DNA of 64,000 nt from Candidatus Multivorans sp. (GCA_965224025.1 OZ245033.1:160001-224000); one strand, 5' to 3'; positions 52,533 to 63,168 are shown, numbered from the stretch's first letter. Notes: generated by a model from the letters alone, not told the origin. A program made the numbers and translations.

Positions 52533-53399
52533 TTACGCCGCAGCCGCCGTCGCCGGGGCTGTGGAAAACTCTCGATTCTGCGGAATGCCCATTAGTCCGC
52601 GGTGGGCTTCGGCAGGTGTCCTGCCGCCGAGCGCCGTGTGTGGCCGCTCCTCATTGTAGAAGGCGAGCCACCCATCGATCACCCGCCGCGCCTCGATGCC
52701 GTCGACGAGTTCGTTCAGGTAGACCGCCTCGTACTTCAGCGAGCGCCACAGGCGCTCGATGAAGATGTTGTCGAGGAAGCGACCCCGGCCGTCCATCGAG
52801 ATCTTCACCGTCGCGTTCTCGAGAAGACCGGTGAAGTCGCCGCTCGTGAACTGGCTCCCCTGATCCGTGTTGAAGATGTCCGGCTTGCCGTACCGGTCGA
52901 GGGCTTCGGCGAAGGCCTCGACGCAGAACGATGCGTCCAGGCTGTTCGACAGCCGCCAGGACAACACCCGACGGCTCGCCCAGTCCATGACCGCCACCAG
53001 GTACAGGAACCCGCCGCGCACCGGAATGTACGTTATGTCCGAGCACCAGACTTGATCCGGACGCTCGATGGAAAGCCCCCTGAGCAGATAGGGATAGACC
53101 TTGTGCTCCGGGTGAGGCTTGCTGGTCCGCGGCGCCCGGTAGATCGCCGCGATACCCATCAACCGCATCAGACGCCGCACCCGGTGACGACCGACCCGAA
53201 CGCCCTCTCGGCGAAGGTGGCGGACCATCTGACGCGAACCGTAGAACGGGTACAGCAGGAACAGCTCGTCGATCCTGCGCATCAGGGCCAGCGTCTCGGC
53301 GCTCTCGCCCTTGGGCCGGTAGTACAGCGAGGAACGGCTGATCTCGAGCAGACGGCACTGCCGACTCAAGCTCACGTCACCCGTCTCCCGCTCGATCAT
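52533..53399 (-). CDS. IS3 transposase OrfB (DDE domain)
   Basis: YGSRQM, WCSDITY, DWASR, NTDQGSQFT, DNIFIERLWRSLKYE, YNEERPH. Confidence 0.92.
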   Translation of the reverse strand: MIERETGDVSLSRQCRLLEISRSSLYYRPKGESAETLALMRRIDELFLLYPFYGSRQMVRHLRREGVRVGRHRVRRLMRLMGIAAIYRAPRTSKPHPEHKVYPYLLRGLSIERPDQVWCSDITYIPVRGGFLYLVAVMDWASRRVLSWRLSNSLDASFCVEAFAEALDRYGKPDIFNTDQGSQFTSGDFTGLLENATVKISMDGRGRFLDNIFIERLWRSLKYEAVYLNELVDGIEARRVIDGWLAFYNEERPHTALGGRTPAEAHRGLMGIPQNREFSTAPATAAAA

Positions 53400-53419
53400 C
53401 CGCAGGCGCTCGGTCCGGC

Positions 53420-53701
53420 TCAGTGCCCGAGCCCCCTGGACAAGAAATCCCGCTCGATCGTCAGCTCCCCGATCTTCGCGTGCAGGTCCCTGATCTCCTC
53501 CTCGTGGTCCCGGCGCCGCTCCGGCCCGGCCGAGAAGGTCTCACTCATCCCCTCGATCGCCTTCCGCTTCCAACTGCTCACCTGATTCGGGTGAATCCGG
53601 TGCCGCGATGCGATCGCCGCGAGCGGCTTCTCCTCACGCAGCGCCTCAAGCGCCACCTTCGACTTGAAAGCCGCAGTGAACTTCCGACGCTTCCTCTTCA
53701 T
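53420..53701 (-). CDS. IS3 transposase OrfA (HTH)
   Basis: RRKFTAAFKSKVALEA..IHPNQVSSWK..LHAKIGELTIERDFL. Confidence 0.92.
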   Translation of the reverse strand: MKRKRRKFTAAFKSKVALEALREEKPLAAIASRHRIHPNQVSSWKRKAIEGMSETFSAGPERRRDHEEEIRDLHAKIGELTIERDFLSRGLGH

Positions 53702-53767: not shown

Positions 53768-54547
53768 TCGGACGAGCGTCGAGAGCGCCAGTCGTTGGGG
53801 GTGGGGAGGATCGGGATGGAGGCCGTGTTCCCCCTCTGGGGGCGCGACTCTCGTGAGCACGCGAGGGACTTGACCGCTGCTGGCATGTCCTCTTGGGTGT
53901 GCTCGGTCGATACGGGAACCGTTCCGGCGGAGCTCTCTGGCAAGCGCTACGACGAGATCTTCGTGGGTGACCTGCCGGATGGCGTCGACCCTGTGGGCGA
54001 GAACGGCGAGTTCCACACGTTCGTGGAGCGGGCACCGGGTTGGCACCGCCGGGTTCCGGTGGCCGCCACACGGCGGATCGAGGTCTACGACTTCGTTTTC
54101 ACCGAGATGGAACTCGCCCACTCAGACGAGAAAAGCCCAATCGGTGATGATGCTGATCCTACAAACAGCACCGTTCCGGACGGCACCGACCCATTTAGCT
54201 ACTTTGAACGGCTGGCCCGTGTACGACGCTACGTAGATGAGCACCTTGTTGAGCACTTGGACAGCGAGTCTGTAGCCAACGTTGCCGCGATGTCACCAAC
54301 GGGCTTCTCGAGATACTTCCGCCAACATGTCGGAACAACCTTCGTCGTATGGTTGGCCCACCGTCGGGTGGAATGGGCCTGCCGCCTCCTGCGGGAACAC
54401 AACGACGCCGTCGGTCAAGTTGCATTTGCCGTGGGGTTCCACAGCGAACGGACCTTCCGCCGGGTCTTCCACGAACAGGTCGGCTGCAGCCCGTCGGAGT
54501 ACCGGAAGCGGTTGATCGAGAAGAAGATGCCGACGGAGCCAGCGTAA
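53768..54547 (+). pseudogene. 5'-truncated fusion of a Dph6/MJ0570-like PP-loop ATPase C-terminal half and an AraC HTH domain
   Basis: VFPLWGRD...DLPDGVDPVGENGEFHTFV followed by YVDEHL..VANVAAMSPTGFSRYFRQHVG..VAFAVGFHSERTFRRVF..GCSPSEYR; the frame begins at the IS3 end. Confidence 0.75.
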
Positions 54548-54607: not shown

Positions 54608-55160
54608 AACTGCACACTCGTTCCGGTGCGGTAGCAGCTGGGGCAGGCGTCCGGAGAAGCACCACGGGGCTCCGGTGTCGGCCGCAGGGAGCGAAGCGAC
54701 CGGAGGCCGACACCGGACGCGCCGAGCGGAGGGGGCTGGTTGTCATGGTCCGTCTTCCCGGCGGTGATCGTCGGTCGCGGTCCGGAGCAGGTCCTGGTGC
54801 GCCCTCATCCGGTAGCTGTTGCCCCGGATGTTGACGATGTGGCAGTCGTGCAGCAGGCGGTCGATGAGCGCCGCGGCCATGATCTCGTCGCCGAGCACGC
54901 CGCCCCATTCCTCGAAGCCCTTCTTGGAGGTAAGCACCGTGGACGCCCGCTCGTGGCGGGCGTTGATCAACTGGAAGAAGAGCACGGCGCCGTCCTGGCT
55001 GATCGGCAGGTAGTCGATCTCGTCCACGACCAGCAAGGCGGGATGGGAAAGTACCCGCAGCCGCCGCGAGAGGTTGCCGGCGGCCTGGGCTGCGGTCAGC
55101 GACTCGATCAGCGCCGCCAGCGTGCCGTGGTAGACGCGGCGTCCGTACCCGGCGGTCGCT
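54608..55160 (-). mobile_element. istB: IS21-family relic: istB C-terminal half plus degraded right end
   Basis: LVVDEIDYLP..LFFQLINARHER.STVLTS..WGGVLGD..AALIDRLLH..IRGNSYR; AACTGCACACT motif and a hairpin shared with 58878-59025. Confidence 0.8.
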
Positions 55161-55195: not shown

Positions 55196-56197
55196 TCAAA
55201 CCGTTTCATGCGGTCTCGCATCCAGCAGCGCGAGGAACTCGGTCTGGCTCGAGCAGGTCTGCGCGGCCTGGATCAGTTCATCGGCCGACAGCCGGTCGAG
55301 CCTCGCCAATCGGTCCGTCAGGTCCGTACTCACGCCGATCCCACGCGCCTGCAGGATCCCCATGACGGCCCGCAGCATCCCGGCACGGTCCTCCGCGCGG
55401 CCCTCGGCGCGACCCTCGGCGCGCTCGCTCCGCAGCCACGGGTCGTCGTCCGGCCCGGTGCCTTCGGCGGTGCCCAGAGCGCGTCCGACGCGCCGCAGCG
55501 CGGCCAGTGTCTCCTCGGAGGTCGCCGATTCGTTGAGCGCGCGGTGGATCTCCTCAGCCGTCCAGCCTGGAAACGCCCGGCTGCTCGACGCCGTCCGGAA
55601 CTTGCCGCCTTCCAGAACGTGGATCGTCAAGCCGGAGAGGCGAGACTTCGGACGGCTCGACGACGGCGCGTCTGGCACGTCCACCCAGACCTCCGGAAAA
55701 CCCCACGCCTCGTAGATTCGGAGCTTCCGCCGCCTGACGTCGGTCGAGTAGTCCACTTCGAGCACGACATCCGGGCGCTCTCGGCTGTCGATATCGACAT
55801 CCCGTTCCCAGACGGTGAACTCAAGTGGATGCAGATAGAGAATCTGGTCCGCCTGCATCAGCACCTTGCGCTCGCCCTGTGCGTCGTAGCGCACCAGGTC
55901 CGTGGCCCCGAACGTCTCGATCGGCGAACCCCTCGACGCGGCAATCCGCTCCGCAAGCCGCGCCAGCCGCTGCGAGGGTTGCTCGTGAAACCGCGTCGTC
56001 GGTTCGCACACGACGACCGCCGTCTCGGTGCGGGCCTCCCAGTACTCGACCCGGCCGTCGTAGTCCCCGATCTCCTCCCGAGAGATGCGCTCCGCCCGGC
56101 AACCGGGGAAGTCGGCCAGATCGAGCGGCGCTTCCTCGGGATCGCCCAGACTCTCGGATCTCGCCCTGGATACGGCTGTCTGGACCGGCTCAGCCAT
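55196..56197 (-). CDS. Uma2-like nuclease with Rpn-like EGRA repeats and C-terminal helical tail (copy A, intact, 333 aa)
   Basis: HEQPS..MQADQILYL..PDVVLEVDYSTD..KL.IYEAWGFPEVWVDVP..DDDPWLRSERAEGRAEGRAEDRAGM. Confidence 0.8.
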   Translation of the reverse strand: MAEPVQTAVSRARSESLGDPEEAPLDLADFPGCRAERISREEIGDYDGRVEYWEARTETAVVVCEPTTRFHEQPSQRLARLAERIAASRGSPIETFGATDLVRYDAQGERKVLMQADQILYLHPLEFTVWERDVDIDSRERPDVVLEVDYSTDVRRRKLRIYEAWGFPEVWVDVPDAPSSSRPKSRLSGLTIHVLEGGKFRTASSSRAFPGWTAEEIHRALNESATSEETLAALRRVGRALGTAEGTGPDDDPWLRSERAEGRAEGRAEDRAGMLRAVMGILQARGIGVSTDLTDRLARLDRLSADELIQAAQTCSSQTEFLALLDARPHETV

Positions 56198-56276
56198 CGT
56201 CCCGAAGCTATCACCGCGCTCGGCGCCGAAAGCCCATGGCCGGTCGTCGATGATCCGCACCGGAGGGCTCCTTCAG

Positions 56277-56413
56277 CGCTCAGAAGTCGAACAAGCTCCG
56301 CTTCGTCCAGGCATCGCTGCGCCGAGAGCACGGCCAACCCGGCGAAGCACCGCCAACGTGTCCGCCGGCGGCAGGCGGCGACTCCACGCGACGTGAATCC
56401 CCTCGGCGGTTCA
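56277..56413 (-). pseudogene. Degenerate remnant of the same Uma2-like family (copy E)
   Basis: G*TAEGIHVAWSRRLPPADTLAVLRRVGRALGAA joined out of frame to AQRCLDEAELVRLL. Confidence 0.6.
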
Positions 56414-57589
56414 GCCCGAGGCGCTCGAAAGGCGGCCCGCCATGCTCGGAACATCTCCCACCGGCAGAACGGAAATCCGCTCGTCCAGTTCATAGGGCCT
56501 TTCTCCGGGATAGATCACCCAGAGGTGATCGAGCCGAAGGTCGGCGAGCGCCAACCTCATCGACTTCGTCGTTCCCGGCGCGTCGCTGTACTTGAACTCG
56601 AACCCGTGTCGGCGGCCGCCGGACACGATCATCAAGTCCAACTCGGCCCCGCCGTGGGTAGCCCAGAAGTGTGCGTTCAGGGGCTGCAGGCAGGACAGGA
56701 CCTGCTCGACGGCAAAGCCTTCAAACGATGCTCCGACTTTCGGATGTCCCGCCAGGCGGTCCGCCGACGGAAGATCGAGGAGTGTGTGTAGGAGGCCACT
56801 GTCGCGAATGTAGACCTTTGGCGCGCGGACCTGCCGCTTCTTGAGGTTCTCGTGCCATGGCGGAAGGACCCGCACGACCTGCGCAGCGACGAGTATGTCG
56901 AGATAGCGGCGGGCGGCAGCCTGACCCGAGCCGATCGCTCGAGCGAACTCCGCCGCGTTCCACACCTGGCCGTGATAGTGCGCGACCATCATCCAGAAGC
57001 GACGCAGCGCCTCCGCCGGCAGCGAGAAGCCGAACTGCGGAATGTCGCGATCGAGAAAGGTCTCCACGAAACTCTCGCGCCACAAGGCGGACAGGTCATC
57101 GTCGTCGGCCAGAAAGCTGCGCGGGAAGCCGCCCCGCAACCAGAGCCTCCGCCAACCGCCTGGCGTCGCGCCGCCCACCTCGGTCAGATCGAAACCCGAG
57201 AGCCGAATCTGCCCGGCGCGGCCCGCCAGAGTCTCCGAGGCGCCGCGAGCGAGAGCCGGGGATGCGCTGCCGAGGACGAGGAAGCGAGCCGGCTCCTCCC
57301 GCCGATCGCACAGGACCCGCAGAATTTCGAACACCTCGGGCTGTCGCTGAATCTCGTCGATCACGACGAAGCCACGCAGAGGCTCCAGAGTCTGCATCGG
57401 CAGCGCGAGGCGCCTCCGATCGACCGGATCCTCCAGATCGAAGTAGCGGCCTCTCTCCGGCGCCTCGTCGAAGAGGGCTCGGGCAAGGGTCGTCTTCCCG
57501 CATTGTCGCGGCCCGACGACCGCGACCGCTGGATGCACCAGAAACGAGCGTTTGATCCGTTGGGCAGCGAACTCGCGGTCAACATTCAC
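56411..57589 (-). CDS. AAA+ ATPase (AAA_14) with wHTH and C-terminal DUF4143 nuclease-like domain
   Basis: GPRQCGKTT, IDEIQR, LGSAS, RGGFP, PKVYIRDSGLL, GASFEG, ELDL..GFEFK. Confidence 0.9.
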   Translation of the reverse strand: MNVDREFAAQRIKRSFLVHPAVAVVGPRQCGKTTLARALFDEAPERGRYFDLEDPVDRRRLALPMQTLEPLRGFVVIDEIQRQPEVFEILRVLCDRREEPARFLVLGSASPALARGASETLAGRAGQIRLSGFDLTEVGGATPGGWRRLWLRGGFPRSFLADDDDLSALWRESFVETFLDRDIPQFGFSLPAEALRRFWMMVAHYHGQVWNAAEFARAIGSGQAAARRYLDILVAAQVVRVLPPWHENLKKRQVRAPKVYIRDSGLLHTLLDLPSADRLAGHPKVGASFEGFAVEQVLSCLQPLNAHFWATHGGAELDLMIVSGGRRHGFEFKYSDAPGTTKSMRLALADLRLDHLWVIYPGERPYELDERISVLPVGDVPSMAGRLSSASG

Positions 57590-57595
57590 CGCCCA

Positions 57596-57645
57596 AGCCT
57601 ACTTTCTTGAAAATCACTCGGTCAAGAGACGATTTTCATGGAAAG
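57596..57645 (-). promoter_or_regulatory. Promoter with overlapping inverted repeat (putative operator) of the AAA+/DUF4143 gene
   Basis: Minus strand TTGACC-18 nt-TAGGCT-6 nt-GTG; imperfect IR CTTTCTTGAAAATC (57602-57615) / GATTTTCATGGAAAG (57631-57645). Confidence 0.6.
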
Positions 57646-57727
57646 ATGGAGAAGTCGAGACGTCTGTCGGCCCGCCACCAGCAGAGCGGCAACGGTTCGT
57701 CTTGACCGCCCCCTCCGACGAAGGACG

Positions 57728-58252
57728 TCAGGCGACTACGTAGGGAATCGTCTGCGGCCCCTCGGGCAGCACGCAGACGCGTGCGTCGGGCCGGCCGGCG
57801 AGGCATTCGGCGATTGCCTCATCGAGGTCGGACGCCGGCTCGAAGTGGGCGGCTGCAAGCTGCTCCGCGGTCAGACCGCCGGCCTTGACCAGAACCCGAG
57901 CGCGGCGCTGGATCAGCGCCTGCACCTGCACCTGCCACTGGTCCGGCTCGGTCACGGGCCGAGCCTCGATCTGCTGAAGCAGCTCCTCGGGCGAGCCGCC
58001 GCGGCCAAGCAGTTCCGCGTAACGGCCATGGTCCGGGATGCCGTCGCTGCACTCCGCCGCGCAGAGGATCGTGCCGCCGTCCGCGACCACTTGCGCCGCC
58101 GCGGACATCCCCTTGACCGCCTGGTACAGGTTCTGGTCGAGGGGATAGCCGGAGTTCGTCGTCACCACGACCTCGAACCGACGTCCGGTCTCCCGCATGG
58201 CGATCAGCCGCGCCGCTTCACACGGCTGGGCGTGCCGCTCGGACAGCTCGCA
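57728..58252 (-). pseudogene. Duplicated 3' fragment of the larA-like gene
   Basis: CEAARLIAMRETGRRFEVVVTTNSGYPLDQNLYQAVKGM...VLPEGPQTIPYV closely matches the last ~170 aa of 61888-63168. Confidence 0.85.
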
Positions 58253-58322
58253 AGCGAGACAATCCTTGCTTCCCAGTTCTCAGGGCGGCCTTCTGGAGCG
58301 GGGCCGACTCGAAGCCGGAGGA

Positions 58323-58877
58323 TCAGCGCCTGAGGCGCCGCAGAAGCTCGGCTTCGTCGGCGCATGTCTGCGCCGCCTGGACCATCTCGACCTCGGACCA
58401 GCCGCGGAGGCCGGCCAGGCGTTCGGTCAGGCCCGGGCTCGCGGGAACGCCGCGCGCCTGGAGTACCGCGACCACCATGCGGACACGCCCTCGGGCAAGA
58501 CCCTCCGCGCGGCCCTCGGCATGGGCCTCCCCGCGCACCTCGGCACGCTCCACCCGCAGCCACGGCTCGTCGTCCGGGCCGGTCCCCTCCGCAGCGCCCA
58601 GAGTCCGGCCGATGCGACGCAGAACGGCCAGGGTCTCCGGCGACGGCAGACGCCGGCTCAGTGCGACATGGATCTCCTCGGCCGTCCAGCCCGGGAACGA
58701 GCGGCTGGAGGACGCTTCCTGGAAACGCTCGCCGTCATGGACGTGAATCGTCAGCCCGCAAAGCCGCGACTTCGGACGCGAACGTTCGTCCGGCACGTCG
58801 ACCCAGACCTCCGGGAAACCCCACCCCTCGTAGAGCGGCAGCTTCCACACCCGCACATCGCTCGAGTAGTCGACCTC
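58323..58877 (-). pseudogene. C-terminal half of a Uma2-like paralog (copy B), truncated at an IS21 end
   Basis: EVDYSSDVRVWKLPLYEGWGFPEVWVDVP...AEGRAEGLARGRVRMVVAVLQARG...; homology stops exactly at the IS21 IR. Confidence 0.8.
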
Positions 58878-59025
58878 TGTCAATGGCAACCGAAACTGCA
58901 CACTTTCTCCGAGGGAGCGGTGGCGGGGCCGGTAGCGGTCGGTGGGCGGGTTCGGTCCGTCCGGAGTCGGCCGTAGGGAGCGGTGCGACCGGAGGCCGAG
59001 CCTGGACGCGCGGCGCCACCGTAGG
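58878..59025. mobile_element. Isolated IS21-family end
   Basis: TGTCAATGGCAACCGAAACTGCACACTT terminus, followed by sequence similar to the region downstream of istB at 54608-54725. Confidence 0.6.
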
Positions 59026-59028
59026 TCA

Positions 59029-59258
59029 CCGGAACGCTCCACGCGCTGCTCCTCCTCCTCGCCCATCAGGACCAGCTCGCCCGGCACCCGAAGGTCGGCG
59101 CCTCGTTCGAGGGCTTTGCGATCGAGCAGATCATCTCTTGCCTCGCGCTGACCAACGTCCACTTCTGGGGTACCCAGGGCGGTGCCGAACTGGACCCGTT
59201 GGTTGTGGTGGGAGGGCGCCGCTACGGCTTTGAAGCGAAGTACAGCGACGCGCCCGGC
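59029..59258 (+). pseudogene. Inverted fragment of an AAA+/DUF4143 paralog
   Basis: HPKVGASFEGFAIEQIISCL..HFWGTQGGAELD..GGRRYGFEAKYSDAPG is paralogous to the C-terminus of 56411-57589. Confidence 0.8.
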
Positions 59259-59301
59259 TACTCCTCAGCGCCGCCAAAGCGACGATCTTTTGGGTCCTCC
59301 T

Positions 59302-60291
59302 TCATGCGAGGAGCCGAAGCAGATCGGCTTCGTCGGCGCAGGTCTGCGCCGCCTGGACCATCTCGACCTCGGACCGGTCGCCGATGCCGGCGAGACGTTC
59401 GGTCAAGCCCGGGCTCGTGGGGACGCTGCGCGCCTGGAGTACTGCGACGACCATCCGGGCGCGCCCCTCAACACGCCCCTCAGCACGGCCCTCTTCGCGG
59501 CCCTCTTCGCGGCTCTCGGCGCGCTCCGCCCGCAACCACGGATCGTCGTCGGGAACGGTCCCGGCCGCAGCGCCCAGGGCGCGGCCGACGCGACGCAGGA
59601 CCGCCAAGGTCTCGGGCGACGGCACGGGCCGGCTCAACGCGACGTGAATCTCCCTCGCGGTCCAGCCCGGGAAGGCGCGGCTGGAAGGCACCTCCTGGTA
59701 GCGCTCGCCGTCGTGGACGTGAATCGTCAGGCCCGAGGACCGCGACCGCGGATGCGAGCGCTCATCCGGCACGTCGATCCAGACCTCAGGGAAGCCCCAC
59801 GTTTCGTACAGCCGCAGCTTCCACACGCGAATGTCGGTCGAATAGTCGACCTCCAGGACCACGTCCGGCAACACGTGGCCGTCCACGTCCACCACCGGCG
59901 AGTCGGCAGGCGCCACGCTCGTGTCGAGGTAGAGAATCTGATCCGCCTGCATGAGGACCCTGCGCTCGCCGGCAGCGCCCGACCGCACGAGGTCCGCAGA
60001 GCCGAACGCCTCGATGGGCGCGCCTCGCGACGCTCCGATCAGCCGCACCAGGCCCGCCAAGCGGTGCGAAGGCCGCTCGTGATACACAGTGGTCGGCTCG
60101 CAGACGACCATCGCCGTTTCGGTCAGGGCTTCCCAGTACTCGACCCGGCCGTCGTAGTCCTCGATCTCCTCCCGCGGGACGCGGACCGTCTCGCAGCCCG
60201 ACTCGCCGGCGAGGGCAAGCGGGGACTTCTCAGGGTCGATCAGTTCCGCTTTCGGCGCCTGGGAACTCGCGGCTTCGACCGTCTCAGCCAT
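59302..60291 (-). CDS. Uma2-like nuclease with Rpn-like repeats and C-terminal tail (copy C, intact, 329 aa)
   Basis: Same motifs as copy A; RAESREEGREEGRAEGRVEGRARMVVAVLQARS. Confidence 0.8.
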   Translation of the reverse strand: MAETVEAASSQAPKAELIDPEKSPLALAGESGCETVRVPREEIEDYDGRVEYWEALTETAMVVCEPTTVYHERPSHRLAGLVRLIGASRGAPIEAFGSADLVRSGAAGERRVLMQADQILYLDTSVAPADSPVVDVDGHVLPDVVLEVDYSTDIRVWKLRLYETWGFPEVWIDVPDERSHPRSRSSGLTIHVHDGERYQEVPSSRAFPGWTAREIHVALSRPVPSPETLAVLRRVGRALGAAAGTVPDDDPWLRAERAESREEGREEGRAEGRVEGRARMVVAVLQARSVPTSPGLTERLAGIGDRSEVEMVQAAQTCADEADLLRLLA

Positions 60292-60346
60292 GACGGCGAG
60301 CGTACCACTGACAAGGCCGTACAGACCGCGGGCCAAGCACCGGCGG

Positions 60347-60682
60347 TCATTCGAACAGGTCCGCGTGCGAGCCGGCCCGGGCAAAGTAGATCGACCCGCT
60401 CGGTCGGTCCGTGTCGTCGATGCGATAGATCAGAAGGAAGTCACCGCCGATGTGGCATTCCCGGTAGCGCGCCCACGAGCCCTTGAGCGCGTGGTCCCTC
60501 CGTTCGGGGTCGAGCGAGACATCGCTGGCAATGAGGAGGAGCATGACCGCCTTCAGCCGGTTCATGTCGTATCGGCCGGAGCGCGACAGCCGCTTCCAGT
60601 CCCTGAGGAACTGCCGGGCGTAGTCGACTCGCCGCGGCAGCTTGGCCCGTTTACTGGCCGCCGGCTTCTTCAAGCTCCGCAA
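60347..60682 (-). CDS. yafQ: YafQ-family (RelE superfamily) mRNA interferase toxin (start uncertain)
   Basis: F.RDWKRL...DHALKGSW..YRECHIGGDFLLIY...RAGSHADLF. Confidence 0.9.
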   Translation of the reverse strand: MRSLKKPAASKRAKLPRRVDYARQFLRDWKRLSRSGRYDMNRLKAVMLLLIASDVSLDPERRDHALKGSWARYRECHIGGDFLLIYRIDDTDRPSGSIYFARAGSHADLFE

Positions 60683-60932
60683 ACACCTCCTCCGCGCTGG
60701 CGAACCGCGCGCTGCGCTTCTTCACCATCCCGTCCACTTCGGCCATGGCGTGGCGGGTCTGCGCGTTCGGCACTTTGAGCTCGATCGGGAAGGCCTGATC
60801 GACGGCAATGCGGTGAAACAGTAGCCGCACGGCCTCCGAAGCCGTCAGTCCCATCGCCGCGAGCGCTGCGGTCGCCTTCTGCTTCATCTCGGTCTCCATG
60901 CGGACGTGCAGCATCGAACTCTCCGTCGTCAT
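60651..60932 (-). CDS. dinJ: DinJ/RelB-family antitoxin
   Basis: MLHVRM..EMKQKA..LAAMGLTASEAVRLLF.RI..DQAFPIELKVPNAQT; AGGAGG SD. Confidence 0.9.
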   Translation of the reverse strand: MTTESSMLHVRMETEMKQKATAALAAMGLTASEAVRLLFHRIAVDQAFPIELKVPNAQTRHAMAEVDGMVKKRSARFASAEEVFAELEEAGGQ

Positions 60933-60942
60933 CCGAGCCTCC

Positions 60943-60964
60943 TGTATCTCATTTGCGAGATACA
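60943..60964. promoter_or_regulatory. Palindromic operator upstream of dinJ-yafQ
   Basis: TGTATCTC-ATTTGC-GAGATACA perfect 8-bp IR next to the SD. Confidence 0.65.
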
Positions 60965-61041
60965 CTGCCATGCAGGCGTGACCAGGTCAACCCGAGCCGA
61001 TCGGACAACAGGACCACCCCGCATCCGACGCTTCGCGTCGA

Positions 61042-61076
61042 ATGCGGGCAGGATGCCCGCGTTCCCAGGCTCGGAG
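61042..61076 (+). repeat. REP-like palindromic repeat, copy 3
   Basis: ATGCGGGCAGGATGCCCGCGTTCCCAGGCTCGGAG, preceded by a CGACG-CTTCG-CGTCG hairpin. Confidence 0.75.
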
Positions 61077-61094
61077 AGCCGGTCCGGCACCGCT

Positions 61095-61826
61095 TCAAGG
61101 CCGCGAAGGCCGGAGCAGGCGAACCAGTACCTCGAGGGTTTCCCGGGACACGAGCGACTCGTTCAGCGCCCGGTGGATCTCCTCCGCCGTTCAGCCCGGA
61201 AAGGTCCGGCTGGCGGACACTGTCCGATACCGGTCGTCCTCCAGGACGTGGATAGTCAGTCCCGGATGCCGCGACCGCGGACGCGACCGCTCGTCCGGCA
61301 CGTCCACCCAGACCTCCGGGAAACCCCACGCCTCGGAGAGCCTCAACTTGCGCACGCGAACGTCGGTCGAATAGTCGACCTCCACGGTCACGTCGGGCAA
61401 CTTGTCGCCATCGACGTCGACCCCCGGTCCCAAGCCCAACACCTCAAGCGGGTCCAGGTACAGAATCTGGTCCGCCTGCATCAACACCTTGCGCTTGCCG
61501 CCACTCTCGAAACGCACCAGATCCGAGGCGCCGAATATCTCGATCGGCGAACCTCTCGATGCCGCGATGAGCCGCGCCAAACCAGCCAGCCGTTGCGATG
61601 GCCATTCGTGGTAGATGGTCGTCGGCTCGCACACGACGATCGCGGTCTCGGTACGGGCTTCCCGGTACTCGAGACGGCCGTCGTAGTCCTCGATGTCGTC
61701 GCACGGTATGCGGACCGCCTTGCAGCCTGGGAAGTCGGCCGGATCCAGCGGCGCCTCCTCGGTGTCGCTCAGCCTCGTTTCCTGCGCCTGGGGAGGACTG
61801 ACAACGGTCTGGACAGGCTCAGCCAT
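61095..61826 (-). pseudogene. Uma2-like paralog (copy D) with TGG->TGA nonsense change at 61191 and no repeat or tail region
   Basis: ...SRTFPG*TAEEIHRALNESLVSRETLEVL, then homology ends next to the REP. Confidence 0.78.
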
Positions 61827-61887
61827 GACCGCGAGCGTAACGCGGGCAACCGGTTCCGGCCAGCGAACGTGCGGACCCCAACCGCTC

Positions 61888-63168
61888 TCAGGCAGCGGCC
61901 GCCACATAGGGGATCGTCCGCGGACCTTCCGGCAGCACGCAGATGCGGGCCTCGGGCCGGGCGGCAAGGCATCCGGCAAGGGTCGCATCGAGGTCCGGGG
62001 CCGGCTCGAAGTGAGCGGCGGCGAGTTGCTCCTCGGTCAGTCCGTCCGCCTTGACCAGCACCCGGGCGCGGCGCTGAATCAACGCCTGGGCCTGGACCTG
62101 CCACTGGTCCGGTTCGGTCACAGGCTGGGCCTCGATCTGGGCCAGAAGTTCGCCGGGCGAGTTGCCCCGGGCGAGCAGTTCGGCGTAGCGGCCGTGGTCG
62201 GGGATGCCGTCGCTGCACTCGGCGGCGCAGAGGATCGTGCCGCCATCGGCCACGACCTGCGCCGCCGCCGACATGCCCTTGACCGCCTGGTAGAGGTTCT
62301 GGTCGAGCGGGTAGCCCGAGTTCGTCGTCACCACGACCTCGAACCGGCGGCCGGTCTCCTGCATGGCGATCGGCCGCGCCGCTTCGCAAGCTCGGGCGTG
62401 CATCGCGAACAGTTCGCCTCCGAAGACGTGCGTGATCCTCTGCGTGCGGTCGAGCAGCACATCGACACTGAAGTGAGGCCGCGCCTCGGGCCGCGCCGCG
62501 ATCGCGCGGATGTCGCTGTGGAGCGGGTTGTCGTCGATGATTCCCCAGGTCGAGCGCGGATCCCCGACGCGGGCGGCGTCGTGCAGAGTCAGCACGGCAT
62601 CGAGGCCGGCAAGGCCGGGAGCGACCATCTTCGGCCCGCCGGAGAAGCCGGCGAAGAAGTGCGGTTCCACGAAGCCGGTCGTGATCCGGAGATCCGCCTC
62701 CAACCAATAGCGGCAGAGCCGGGTCGGGACGCCTTGGCCGCTCTCCCCCAGGTCGACCAGGGACGAGTCGTCGCGGGCGTCGTGGTTGATCACGCGGCAC
62801 GAGCAGAGGATCTCCTCGCCGAGCATCGACCGGAGTTCGGCCGGCGTGTTCGCGCGGTGGGTGCCGGTGGCGATCAGGATCGTCACGTCTTCCGGCCGGA
62901 CGAGGCCGTCGAGTTCACGAAGAACCGCGCCGACCATCTCCCGGCGCGGCTGCGCCCGGGTGATGTCGCACACCGAGATCGCCATCGTCTGGCCGGGCTT
63001 CGCCAACTCCCGGAGCGGCGGTCCGGCGACCGGCTGGCGCAGCGCCGCGGTGAGAGCCGCGTCCGGGTCTCGGAGCGCCGGCGCCTGATACGGCTCGATC
63101 ACGGTCGTCCGCTCCCGCGGTACGTCGATCTCCAGGCCGCTCCGACCGTAGGCAAGGCGAACGCGCAT
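61888..63168 (-). CDS. larA: LarA-family nickel-pincer-dependent racemase/epimerase
   Basis: DITR, IATGTHR, NHD, EPHFFAGFSGGPKMVAPG, GYPLDQNLYQAVKG. Confidence 0.85.
   Translation of the reverse strand: MRVRLAYGRSGLEIDVPRERTTVIEPYQAPALRDPDAALTAALRQPVAGPPLRELAKPGQTMAISVCDITRAQPRREMVGAVLRELDGLVRPEDVTILIATGTHRANTPAELRSMLGEEILCSCRVINHDARDDSSLVDLGESGQGVPTRLCRYWLEADLRITTGFVEPHFFAGFSGGPKMVAPGLAGLDAVLTLHDAARVGDPRSTWGIIDDNPLHSDIRAIAARPEARPHFSVDVLLDRTQRITHVFGGELFAMHARACEAARPIAMQETGRRFEVVVTTNSGYPLDQNLYQAVKGMSAAAQVVADGGTILCAAECSDGIPDHGRYAELLARGNSPGELLAQIEAQPVTEPDQWQVQAQALIQRRARVLVKADGLTEEQLAAAHFEPAPDLDATLAGCLAARPEARICVLPEGPRTIPYVAAAA

Follow-up and report, generated by a model that had tools for sequence, protein, structure and literature searches.

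A large family of Uma2-type nuclease genes with a hypervariable Rpn-type tail and, apparently, no conserved internal antitoxin start

A cluster of related genes in Candidatus Multivorans sp. raises the question of whether the Rpn design, a toxin with an intragenic antitoxin, also occurs on a different nuclease. The minus strand of GCA_965224025.1 OZ245033.1:160001-224000 carries them at 55.2-61.9 kb; this 64,000-nt stretch, of approximately 68% G+C, was analysed as a whole and is referred to here as the window. As described in excerpts of Zhong et al. 2023 (PMC10400941), the anti-phage Rpn systems pair an RpnL toxin with an intragenic RpnS antitoxin, and a commentary asked if such dominant-negative tails are unique to Rpn (PMC10400984). 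A preliminary description of the window proposed that its copies place an Rpn-like repeat and tail behind a Uma2-like nuclease core and that the tail is also translated separately as a small antitoxin. The reading that we favour, and hold with moderate confidence, is that these genes belong to a large family of single genes in which a Uma2 core is followed by a helical linker and a hypervariable Rpn-type tail, with a promoter of their own and without a conserved internal antitoxin start. Judged from sequence comparisons, this is apparently the Rpn design on another nuclease, minus the conserved gene-within-gene start. The window holds these copies of the gene:

Copy A, 55196-56197, minus strand: intact gene of 333 amino acids (aa) plus stop, comprising a Uma2 core, a linker, the repeat helix and the tail (open reading frame (ORF), alignment, Pfam, AlphaFold2 (AF2) and Foldseek).
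Copy C, 59302-60291, minus strand: intact gene of 329 aa plus stop, 62% identical to A (ORF, alignment).
Copy B, 58323-58877, minus strand: 5'-truncated, running from family residue ~145 to the end, with the N-terminal half of the nuclease missing (ORF, alignment).
Copy D, 61191-61826, minus strand: 3'-truncated, core only, 211 aa, without repeat or tail (ORF, alignment).
Fragment E, 56276-56410, minus strand: remnant with a match to family residues 212-244 (linker), between an ATPase gene and A (hmmsearch with the family profile on six-frame ORFs; direct repeat family D7).

All four of the copies that the preliminary description had listed, A to D, were found where it placed them, but it overlooked the fifth, fragment E. 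In copy D the family-invariant W53 has become R and the nearly invariant Y162 has become S, and because both residues are lost this copy is probably decaying.

We assign the core of the family to the Uma2-type PD-(D/E)xK domains, with nuclease activity predicted, because Pfam profiles, Foldseek structural matches, a tblastn search of plasmids and the conserved acidic and lysine residues all point to it. Copy A matched the Uma2 profile PF05685 with 29.3 bits against a cut-off of 27; copy C scored 19.9 bits, under that cut-off, and neither B nor D gave a match. When an AF2 model of A, built on a 100-sequence alignment and with a mean predicted local distance difference test score (pLDDT) of 90, was compared with the Protein Data Bank (PDB) by Foldseek, the top seven matches were chains of 9y1l, 6okh, 1wdj and 3ot2 (probability 1.0, target TM-score 0.56-0.71), all of them Uma2/DUF820 structures, in agreement with the Uma2-like core that had first been proposed. 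A profile of the whole protein sequence found only weak Uma2 matches in the PDB. In 100 sequences no variation is seen at E72, D117, D149 and K158, and conservation at D143 and E147 is 90% or above; these putative catalytic residues, acidic and lysine, correspond in alignment to the PD..E region of the structures 9y1l and 6okh. The plasmid search returned four cyanobacterial genes annotated 'Uma2 family endonuclease', which match residues 41-237 and never the tail. Uma2 was also the domain found by Pfam in 18 of the 149 tail-bearing proteins of a search of representative proteins (other nuclease families, 0/149), and a YhgA-like core (PF04754 or PF12784) was not found in the family, for which Pfam returns Uma2 only.

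Canonical Uma2/DUF820/COG4636 proteins (approximately 190 aa; 1wdj, 3ot2, 6okh and 9y1l) share with the present family their fold and the PD...E-x-D/S...K region, and both make paralogous cassettes with no partner antitoxin. The present family differs in having roughly 30 extra N-terminal residues, a helical linker (residues ~212-245) and a repeat-plus-tail module of about 85 aa. In PMC2701414, Uma2 (COG4636) is termed a 'likely solo toxin' that forms paralogue cassettes, a description that fits a reading of the core as a toxic endonuclease.

What the additional module might be is less apparent from standard domain models: when Pfam, NCBIfam and PADLOC were run on tails and on whole proteins, no significant tail family was found, and NCBIfam returned nothing. 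We nevertheless regard the tail as a homologue of the Rpn tail because a protein language model (Atlas), a profile link through two public proteins and an alignment of the non-repeat part all connect them. With Atlas, DUF4351 made up 25 of the 30 nearest named clusters of the tail with its repeats (score 0.95) and 28 of 30 for the tail without them (score 0.92, 182/256 shared features). In a 5.8-billion-protein set, the tail profile reached small proteins named 'predicted transposase YdaD' (JGI) or 'DUF4351 domain-containing' (UniRef), and it also found P0346 (E = 9e-5), which is 98% identical to the C-terminus of P0369, a PF04754 (YhgA/Rpn) protein; among the relatives of this pair, P0388 has both PF04754 and PF14261 and P0415 is named an Rpn family nuclease by its source. 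Since low-complexity repeats inflate scores, the repeats were cut out on both sides before profiles were aligned with hhalign; once they are removed, the scores of single-sequence hidden Markov models (HMMs) drop to 13-23 bits. The non-repeat tail aligned with the non-repeat Rpn tails with a probability of 94.1 (E = 1.3e-7, 47 columns), the Rpn set consisting of 20 of 23 Rpn proteins, the other three of which could not be anchored, and 30 column-shuffled controls reached a probability of at most 2.0. In the AF2 model the tail of A consists of helices at residues 293-298, 305-314 and 318-327.

The tail also resembles stand-alone DUF4351/RpnS-like small proteins such as E. coli ypaA, with which it has in common an (EGRA/EAKG)n repeat and, after it, a helical domain of the type 'AVLxVLxxRGIxV...'; hhalign gave a probability of 96.7 for this comparison, but with sequences that had been chosen by the same tail profile. 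In those small proteins the domain is unfused, whereas in the present family it is joined to a nuclease.

Four proteins that lack a nuclease domain, P0154, P0201, P0243 and P0245, are built from two or three repeat-plus-tail modules in tandem. P0351 is the C-terminus of a Uma2-family protein whose tail carries an 'LLxRQxxRRFG...' motif, putatively of the cyanobacterial DUF4351 type, and this protein hints that several tail subtypes have been swapped onto the Uma2 core.

Between core and tail stand the repeats, which TRF located in each copy that keeps its 3' end:

Copy A repeat tract, 55381-55423, minus strand: 12-nt period, 3.6 copies, AEGR-type tetrads (TRF, translation).
Copy B repeat tract, 58487-58545, minus strand (TRF).
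Copy C repeat tract, 59458-59523, minus strand: 12-nt period, 5.5 copies (TRF).

A tract after the core had already been recognized in the preliminary description, and the 12-nt period corresponds to a four-residue, EGRA-like unit. In six groups of close relatives, most of them from different genomes, the repeat segments differ in length by a multiple of four in every case, the differences ranging from 4 to 32 residues. The tightest of the six combines cores that are 98-100% identical with repeat lengths that differ by fours, and in one group 2, 4, 9 and approximately 10 tetrads occur in tails that are otherwise 96-100% identical; an array at locus L018 comprises 11.7 copies of a 12-nt unit by TRF. 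Rpn repeat number is likewise hypervariable in four-residue steps, as given in the same excerpts of PMC10400941. Together with the hhalign and Atlas results, this tetrad hypervariability bears out the idea that a nuclease-repeat-tail design of Rpn type sits on a Uma2 core.

The likeness to Rpn extends further. Both families place behind a PD-(D/E)xK nuclease first an extended helix of four-residue repeats and then a small helical tail, which is homologous outside the repeats; in both, repeat number varies by four residues among near-identical genes; and both are multi-copy, with tandem arrays and with tail-bearing remnants downstream of full genes. They differ in that the present core is Uma2/DUF820 and not YhgA-like, in the main start, which is apparently leaderless here, and in their hosts, which for the present family are Acidobacteriota, Spirochaetota and one gammaproteobacterial metagenome-assembled genome (MAG). 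No paper was found that describes a Uma2 core with an Rpn/DUF4351 tail, although Dataset S1 of PMC10400941 might list other architectures.

The family is large. With C as query, at least 1812 of the 8000 candidate proteins that were scored reached E <= 1e-3, almost all of them alike in length and covered in full, and 554 places in species-representative genomes were confirmed by tblastn, several genomes having four or more. The hosts are mostly Thermoanaerobaculia ('Ca. Multivorans'), Vicinamibacteraceae and Spirochaetia MAGs. Tandem arrays occur at loci L001, L002, L008, L022 and L069, as do truncated copies, and the 104 family ORFs from the loci and the window comprise 89 full genes, 8 without a tail, 5 with a tail only and 2 that are partial.

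Tails appear to be exchanged between paralogous copies, because paralogues have diverged at synonymous sites two to six times less in their tails than in their cores and because nearly identical cores can bear different tails. One such pair, which we count as direct evidence of exchange, is L006:3479-4978 and L007:3566-4957, whose cores are separated by a tree path of approximately 0.02-0.03 and whose tail types differ (DLLRAVAGILEARRV... versus RMVVALLQARGV...). In addition, L001:7808-8430 and L002:5707-6329 are internal-deletion derivatives in which family residues 1-91 are joined out of frame to tail residues 256-324; they lie downstream of intact copies and are conserved in two related genomes.

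From these features we propose the following mechanism. The core would be a potentially toxic DNA endonuclease; the module behind it is built as one long helix of four-residue (12-nt) repeats and then a small DUF4351-like helical bundle, and the tail may serve for self-association and regulation as it does in Rpn. Repeat number would change fast by slippage while tails pass between paralogues, and repeat variation and tail exchange could together insulate co-resident copies from one another and diversify them, as might be expected of a defence or addiction-type gene.

The start regions of the full-length genes have a common pattern. Of 64 homologous genes whose start could be assigned, 59 have a TAnnnT hexamer, in many cases after TGn, that ends 5-9 nt (mode 7) before the main ATG; the figure for all ATG triplets in the same DNA is 143 of 6641 (2.2%). 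The three copies in the window that keep a main start conform to it:

Copy A, 56205-56210, minus strand: -10-like hexamer TAGCTT with TGn before it, 7 nt upstream of the ATG; probable promoter of a leaderless mRNA (sequence, homologue pattern).
Copy C, 60299-60304, minus strand: -10-like hexamer TACGCT with TGn before it, 7 nt upstream of the ATG (sequence).
Copy D, 61834-61839, minus strand: -10-like hexamer TACGCT, 7 nt upstream of the ATG (sequence).

Because a -10-like box about 7 nt before the ATG is so much more frequent than in the background, these data strongly suggest that it directs a leaderless mRNA beginning at the main ATG, and the earlier statement that the genes are leaderless and have no Shine-Dalgarno (SD) sequence is well supported, with A, C and D all fitting.

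The proposal of a separately translated small antitoxin depends on in-frame ATGs that follow the repeats in three copies. These are present as reported, with the predicted products and the tails that they would encode as follows:

Copy A, 55199-55378, minus strand: non-repeat tail and candidate 60-aa product from the ATG at 55378; DUF4351/Rpn-tail-like helical bundle (hhalign, Atlas, AF2).
Copy B, 58326-58478, minus strand: non-repeat tail and candidate 51-aa product from the ATG at 58478 (translation).
Copy C, 59305-59454, minus strand: non-repeat tail and candidate 50-aa product from the ATG at 59454 (translation).

One account of these codons, which we judge to be unlikely, is that in the subclades that carry it the post-repeat ATG is a real start, from which a 50-60-aa tail peptide is made that binds the full-length tail and keeps the nuclease inactive, so that the pair would make up a toxin-antitoxin or defence system of the gene-within-gene kind. 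The ATGs do exist, as do purine-rich motifs upstream of them, the tail is homologous to an Rpn tail whose separate form is an antitoxin, and with a leaderless main start and an SD-led internal one the antitoxin could be made in excess. Moreover, the nearest Atlas clusters are stand-alone DUF4351 proteins of similar size (48-57 aa), and two public predictions of 51 aa, P0196 and P0223, match only the post-repeat tail profile and do so from their first residue, P0223 beginning MVVAVL, exactly at the post-repeat Met.

The distribution of the Met among homologues argues against this account. The Mets had been described as lying at the same position, but they occupy different columns, eight residues before the conserved LxxRG motif in A and five before it in B and C, and MAFFT leaves them unaligned. 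B and C, with 82% DNA identity over 300 nt of the tail region, are by this measure recent paralogues, and the three Mets therefore amount to roughly two independent observations. An ATG is found within 12 codons before LxxRG in 37 of 85 genomic homologues (13 at -8, 17 at -5 and a few elsewhere), and 16 of the 85 have no ATG, GTG or TTG in that interval. At the protein level, 108 of the 120 best homologues of C could be anchored, and a Met stands among the 12 residues that precede LxxRG in 41 of these; even where identity to C is 61% or more, Ile or Val takes its place in 5 of 22 homologues. In the C-terminal third of 100 aligned sequences no column reaches 90% Met. On a tree of the core only, the presence of the Met requires at least 12 changes, 8 of which are forced by well-supported branches. 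The internal SD and ATG, whose absence from homologues the preliminary description had named first among the grounds for abandoning its proposal, are thus largely not conserved.

The upstream motifs fare similarly. GGAGG 11 nt before the ATG of A, GAGGG 9 nt before that of B and GAGGGG 9 nt before that of C are present as described, but their meaning as SD sequences is unsupported, since SD-like 4-mers 4-12 nt upstream are equally common without a Met (20 of 37 genes with it, 25 of 48 without), and 8 of the 13 genes with a Met at -8 have none. The motifs are a by-product of the repeat codons GAG-GGN and CGA-GGG (Glu-Gly/Arg-Gly). Their spacing of 9-11 nt is also longer than the 3-6 nt seen at real starts, namely 3-5 nt at clear starts in the window (RelB, IS3 orfA and YafQ) and 6 nt for the AAGGAG upstream of both E. 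coli rpnE-S, a proven internal start, and the stand-alone ypaA. No TAnnnT that might serve as a -10 box for a leaderless small transcript occurs within 30 nt upstream of the internal ATGs. We also considered whether the conserved Val that stands four residues ahead of LxxRG might conceal a GTG start, and rejected this because GTG encodes the Val in 38 of 69 cases (55%) against a background of 49%.

The location of the candidate start differs from that in Rpn as well. The excerpts of PMC10400941 place the start of the Rpn small protein 8-20 residues before the repeats, which lie inside RpnS and set which long protein it blocks; this start is invariant, and the Met of its MT(I/L)AE motif is kept in 20 of the 20 PF04754 relatives that we examined. 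The present family has no such conserved Met before the repeats, and its only candidate start, specific to some clades, comes after them, so that the peptide would be made without the repeats that give RpnS its specificity. In the window copies the stretch matching the Rpn start region (GPDDDPWLR) contains no start codon; copy A has no ATG, GTG or TTG from residue 191 to the Met, and in B and C such codons are limited to scattered GTG or TTG that lack an SD. With neither the Met nor the SD conserved, and with the Met after the repeats, unlike in Rpn, the separately translated antitoxin is left unsupported. A separate tail peptide, by these comparisons, does not appear to be a conserved feature of the family, and the internal ATGs would most simply be Met variants at hydrophobic helix positions in some subclades.

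A number of observations weigh against our favoured reading and are brought together here. One well-supported subclade contains A and another C, and in both the Met is well kept (at -8 in 7 of 8 rows and at -5 in the eighth for A, at -5 in 7 of 7 rows for C); an internal start may be restricted to some clades. The kinship of the tail to DUF4351 and Rpn tails, which hhalign and Atlas uphold, does not extend to every method: the Pfam DUF4351 model (PF14261) matched 1 of 52 tails, under threshold (E = 0.019); a tail-only structural model (mean pLDDT 75.6) had a best E of 3.2 against the PDB in Foldseek, with RpnA-S (7TH0) not among the matches; and a tail sequence profile gave only chance-level PDB matches (RelA, MscS) and no 7TH0. 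As for a role in defence, there is no consistent defence-island context at 22 loci, where transposase, AbiEii-like and DUF4143 genes are only occasional; no phage homologue was found in the phage collection searched; and PADLOC gave the family proteins only weak matches to PDC-S17 (E = 3e-4 to 2e-2). The function assigned to every family member, finally, is derived from homology.

Copy B raises the possibility that a tail-only inhibitor is supplied from elsewhere, either in trans by truncated copies (B for C, much as ypaA stands beside rpnE) or from an unrecognized start before the repeats; we consider this very unlikely. On the minus strand B follows directly after C, and since 25 residues separate WLR from the Met in both, a B/C pairing would be allowed under the Rpn rule, in an arrangement that recalls rpnE-ypaA. 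Its tail protein sequence is identical to that of the full-length gene starting at L022 base 90. Tail-bearing remnants are, moreover, common beside intact genes (the tail-only and partial ORFs counted above, e.g. at L001, L002 and L008). However, B keeps approximately 67 residues of the nuclease core and is fused in frame to unrelated upstream sequence, and for these reasons it looks like a scar left by rearrangement. Its substitutions do not set tail apart from core: relative to the nearest full-length gene the tail has 0 nonsynonymous and 3 synonymous changes and the core a ratio of nonsynonymous to synonymous change (pN/pS) of 0.25, with too few sites to separate the two. With regard to an upstream start, a Met in the context AAMGAAEG precedes the repeats by about 17 residues in some relatives; P0277 and P0288 (86 aa) begin at this Met, and P0130, P0136, P0170 and P0202 begin just before the repeats. 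Such short public tail ORFs may, however, be gene-caller products on fragments, and the dearth of start codons before the Met in A, B and C noted above speaks against this origin too.

Were either kind of separate tail real, the family would be a second, independent toxin-antitoxin family, in which a Uma2 'solo toxin' is checked by its own separately made Rpn-type tail, from a clade-specific ATG or from length-matched orphan tails (B for C). We regard this as doubtful. Its consequences would be considerable, since the Rpn tail would then be a portable antitoxin cassette captured by different nucleases, which would explain Uma2 cassettes without partner antitoxins. On the single-gene reading that we favour, a hypervariable Rpn tail is joined to another nuclease fold, chiefly in uncultured members of the Acidobacteriota and Spirochaetota, and its presence there in so large a family implies that the module is portable. 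The family also offers a natural test of which features of Rpn are essential, whether repeats within the small protein, a conserved internal start, or neither, and it bears on the old view of Uma2 nucleases as solo toxins.

The surroundings of the genes are relevant to a further alternative, and they can be described first within the window. The 3' end of larA (gene at 61888-63168; the part at 61897-62196) is duplicated at 57728-58198 with 81% identity over 300 nt, and a 189-nt piece of a DUF4143 ATPase gene is inverted between B and C (59069-59257 versus 56574-56762, 72% complementary). We interpret the 55-62 kb region as a patchwork assembled by local duplication, its joints occupied by the nuclease copies. 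The ATPase itself, an AAA+ protein (AAA_14 plus DUF4143) encoded at 56411-57589 on the minus strand, matches the PADLOC candidate defence family PDC-S01 (E = 5.7e-76), and a DUF4143 ATPase gene also comes after the family gene at L003. At L008:7771-8241 and L022:4025-4576, chimeric ORFs join the N-terminus of a DUF4143 ATPase to the C-terminal half of a Uma2-type core; because like junctions thus occur in two other genomes, they suggest recurrent recombination between ATPase and Uma2 neighbours.

Beyond the window, 102 ORFs were surveyed in the flanks of 22 related loci, of 28 chosen from 76 in all. Those with Pfam matches are mostly housekeeping genes, encoding larA and a 3-keto-disaccharide hydrolase (in window-like synteny), sulfatases, tetratricopeptide repeat proteins and transporters. 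The family genes look like single-gene insertions scattered in the chromosome, as rpn genes are in the excerpts of PMC10400941, and not like fixed members of defence islands.

A patchwork of this kind would also suit an explanation without any toxin-antitoxin function, in which the tail is a DNA-binding or spacing module resembling a helix-turn-helix (HTH) and the repeats tune the geometry of the target, or in which the gene encodes a selfish nuclease that promotes recombination and spreads through local duplications; to this explanation, too, we give only a small chance. For a DNA-binding tail, excerpts of PMC10400941 relate RpnS to HTH motifs by HHpred and recount that the number of TAEL repeats alters the recognition spacer of EcoR124I/II, but no DNA-binding family matched the tail significantly in Pfam or the PDB. 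For a selfish nuclease, the duplicated larA end, the inverted ATPase piece and the truncated and chimeric copies, with ATPase-Uma2 chimeras recurring at L008 and L022, are joined by the fact that the genes sit singly among housekeeping genes; no terminal inverted repeats or target duplications were noticed, though no search for them was made. Homology to the Rpn tail favours, over either version, the function that has been demonstrated for that tail.

Other features of the region can be recorded more briefly. Between C and D, at 60347-60971 on the minus strand, a toxin-antitoxin pair is inserted that consists of a RelB/DinJ antitoxin (Pfam E = 7.5e-14) and a YafQ-type toxin (E = 8.2e-27). Further signs of a rearranged stretch rich in mobile elements are an IS3-family transposase (orfA/orfB; 52533-53701, minus strand), identified by reading ORF translations; a C-terminal fragment of IstB, the IS21 helper (54743-55036, minus strand; Pfam match); and an ORF at 53795-54547 on the plus strand in which a diphthamide-synthase-like fragment is joined to an AraC-type HTH (Pfam match). 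A G+C-rich element of 57 nt is present in two copies, at 54671-54727 and 58960-59016, which are 84% identical and contain an internal palindrome (TCCGGTGTCGGCC...GGCCGACACCGGA) resembling the hairpins of repetitive extragenic palindromic (REP) sequences.

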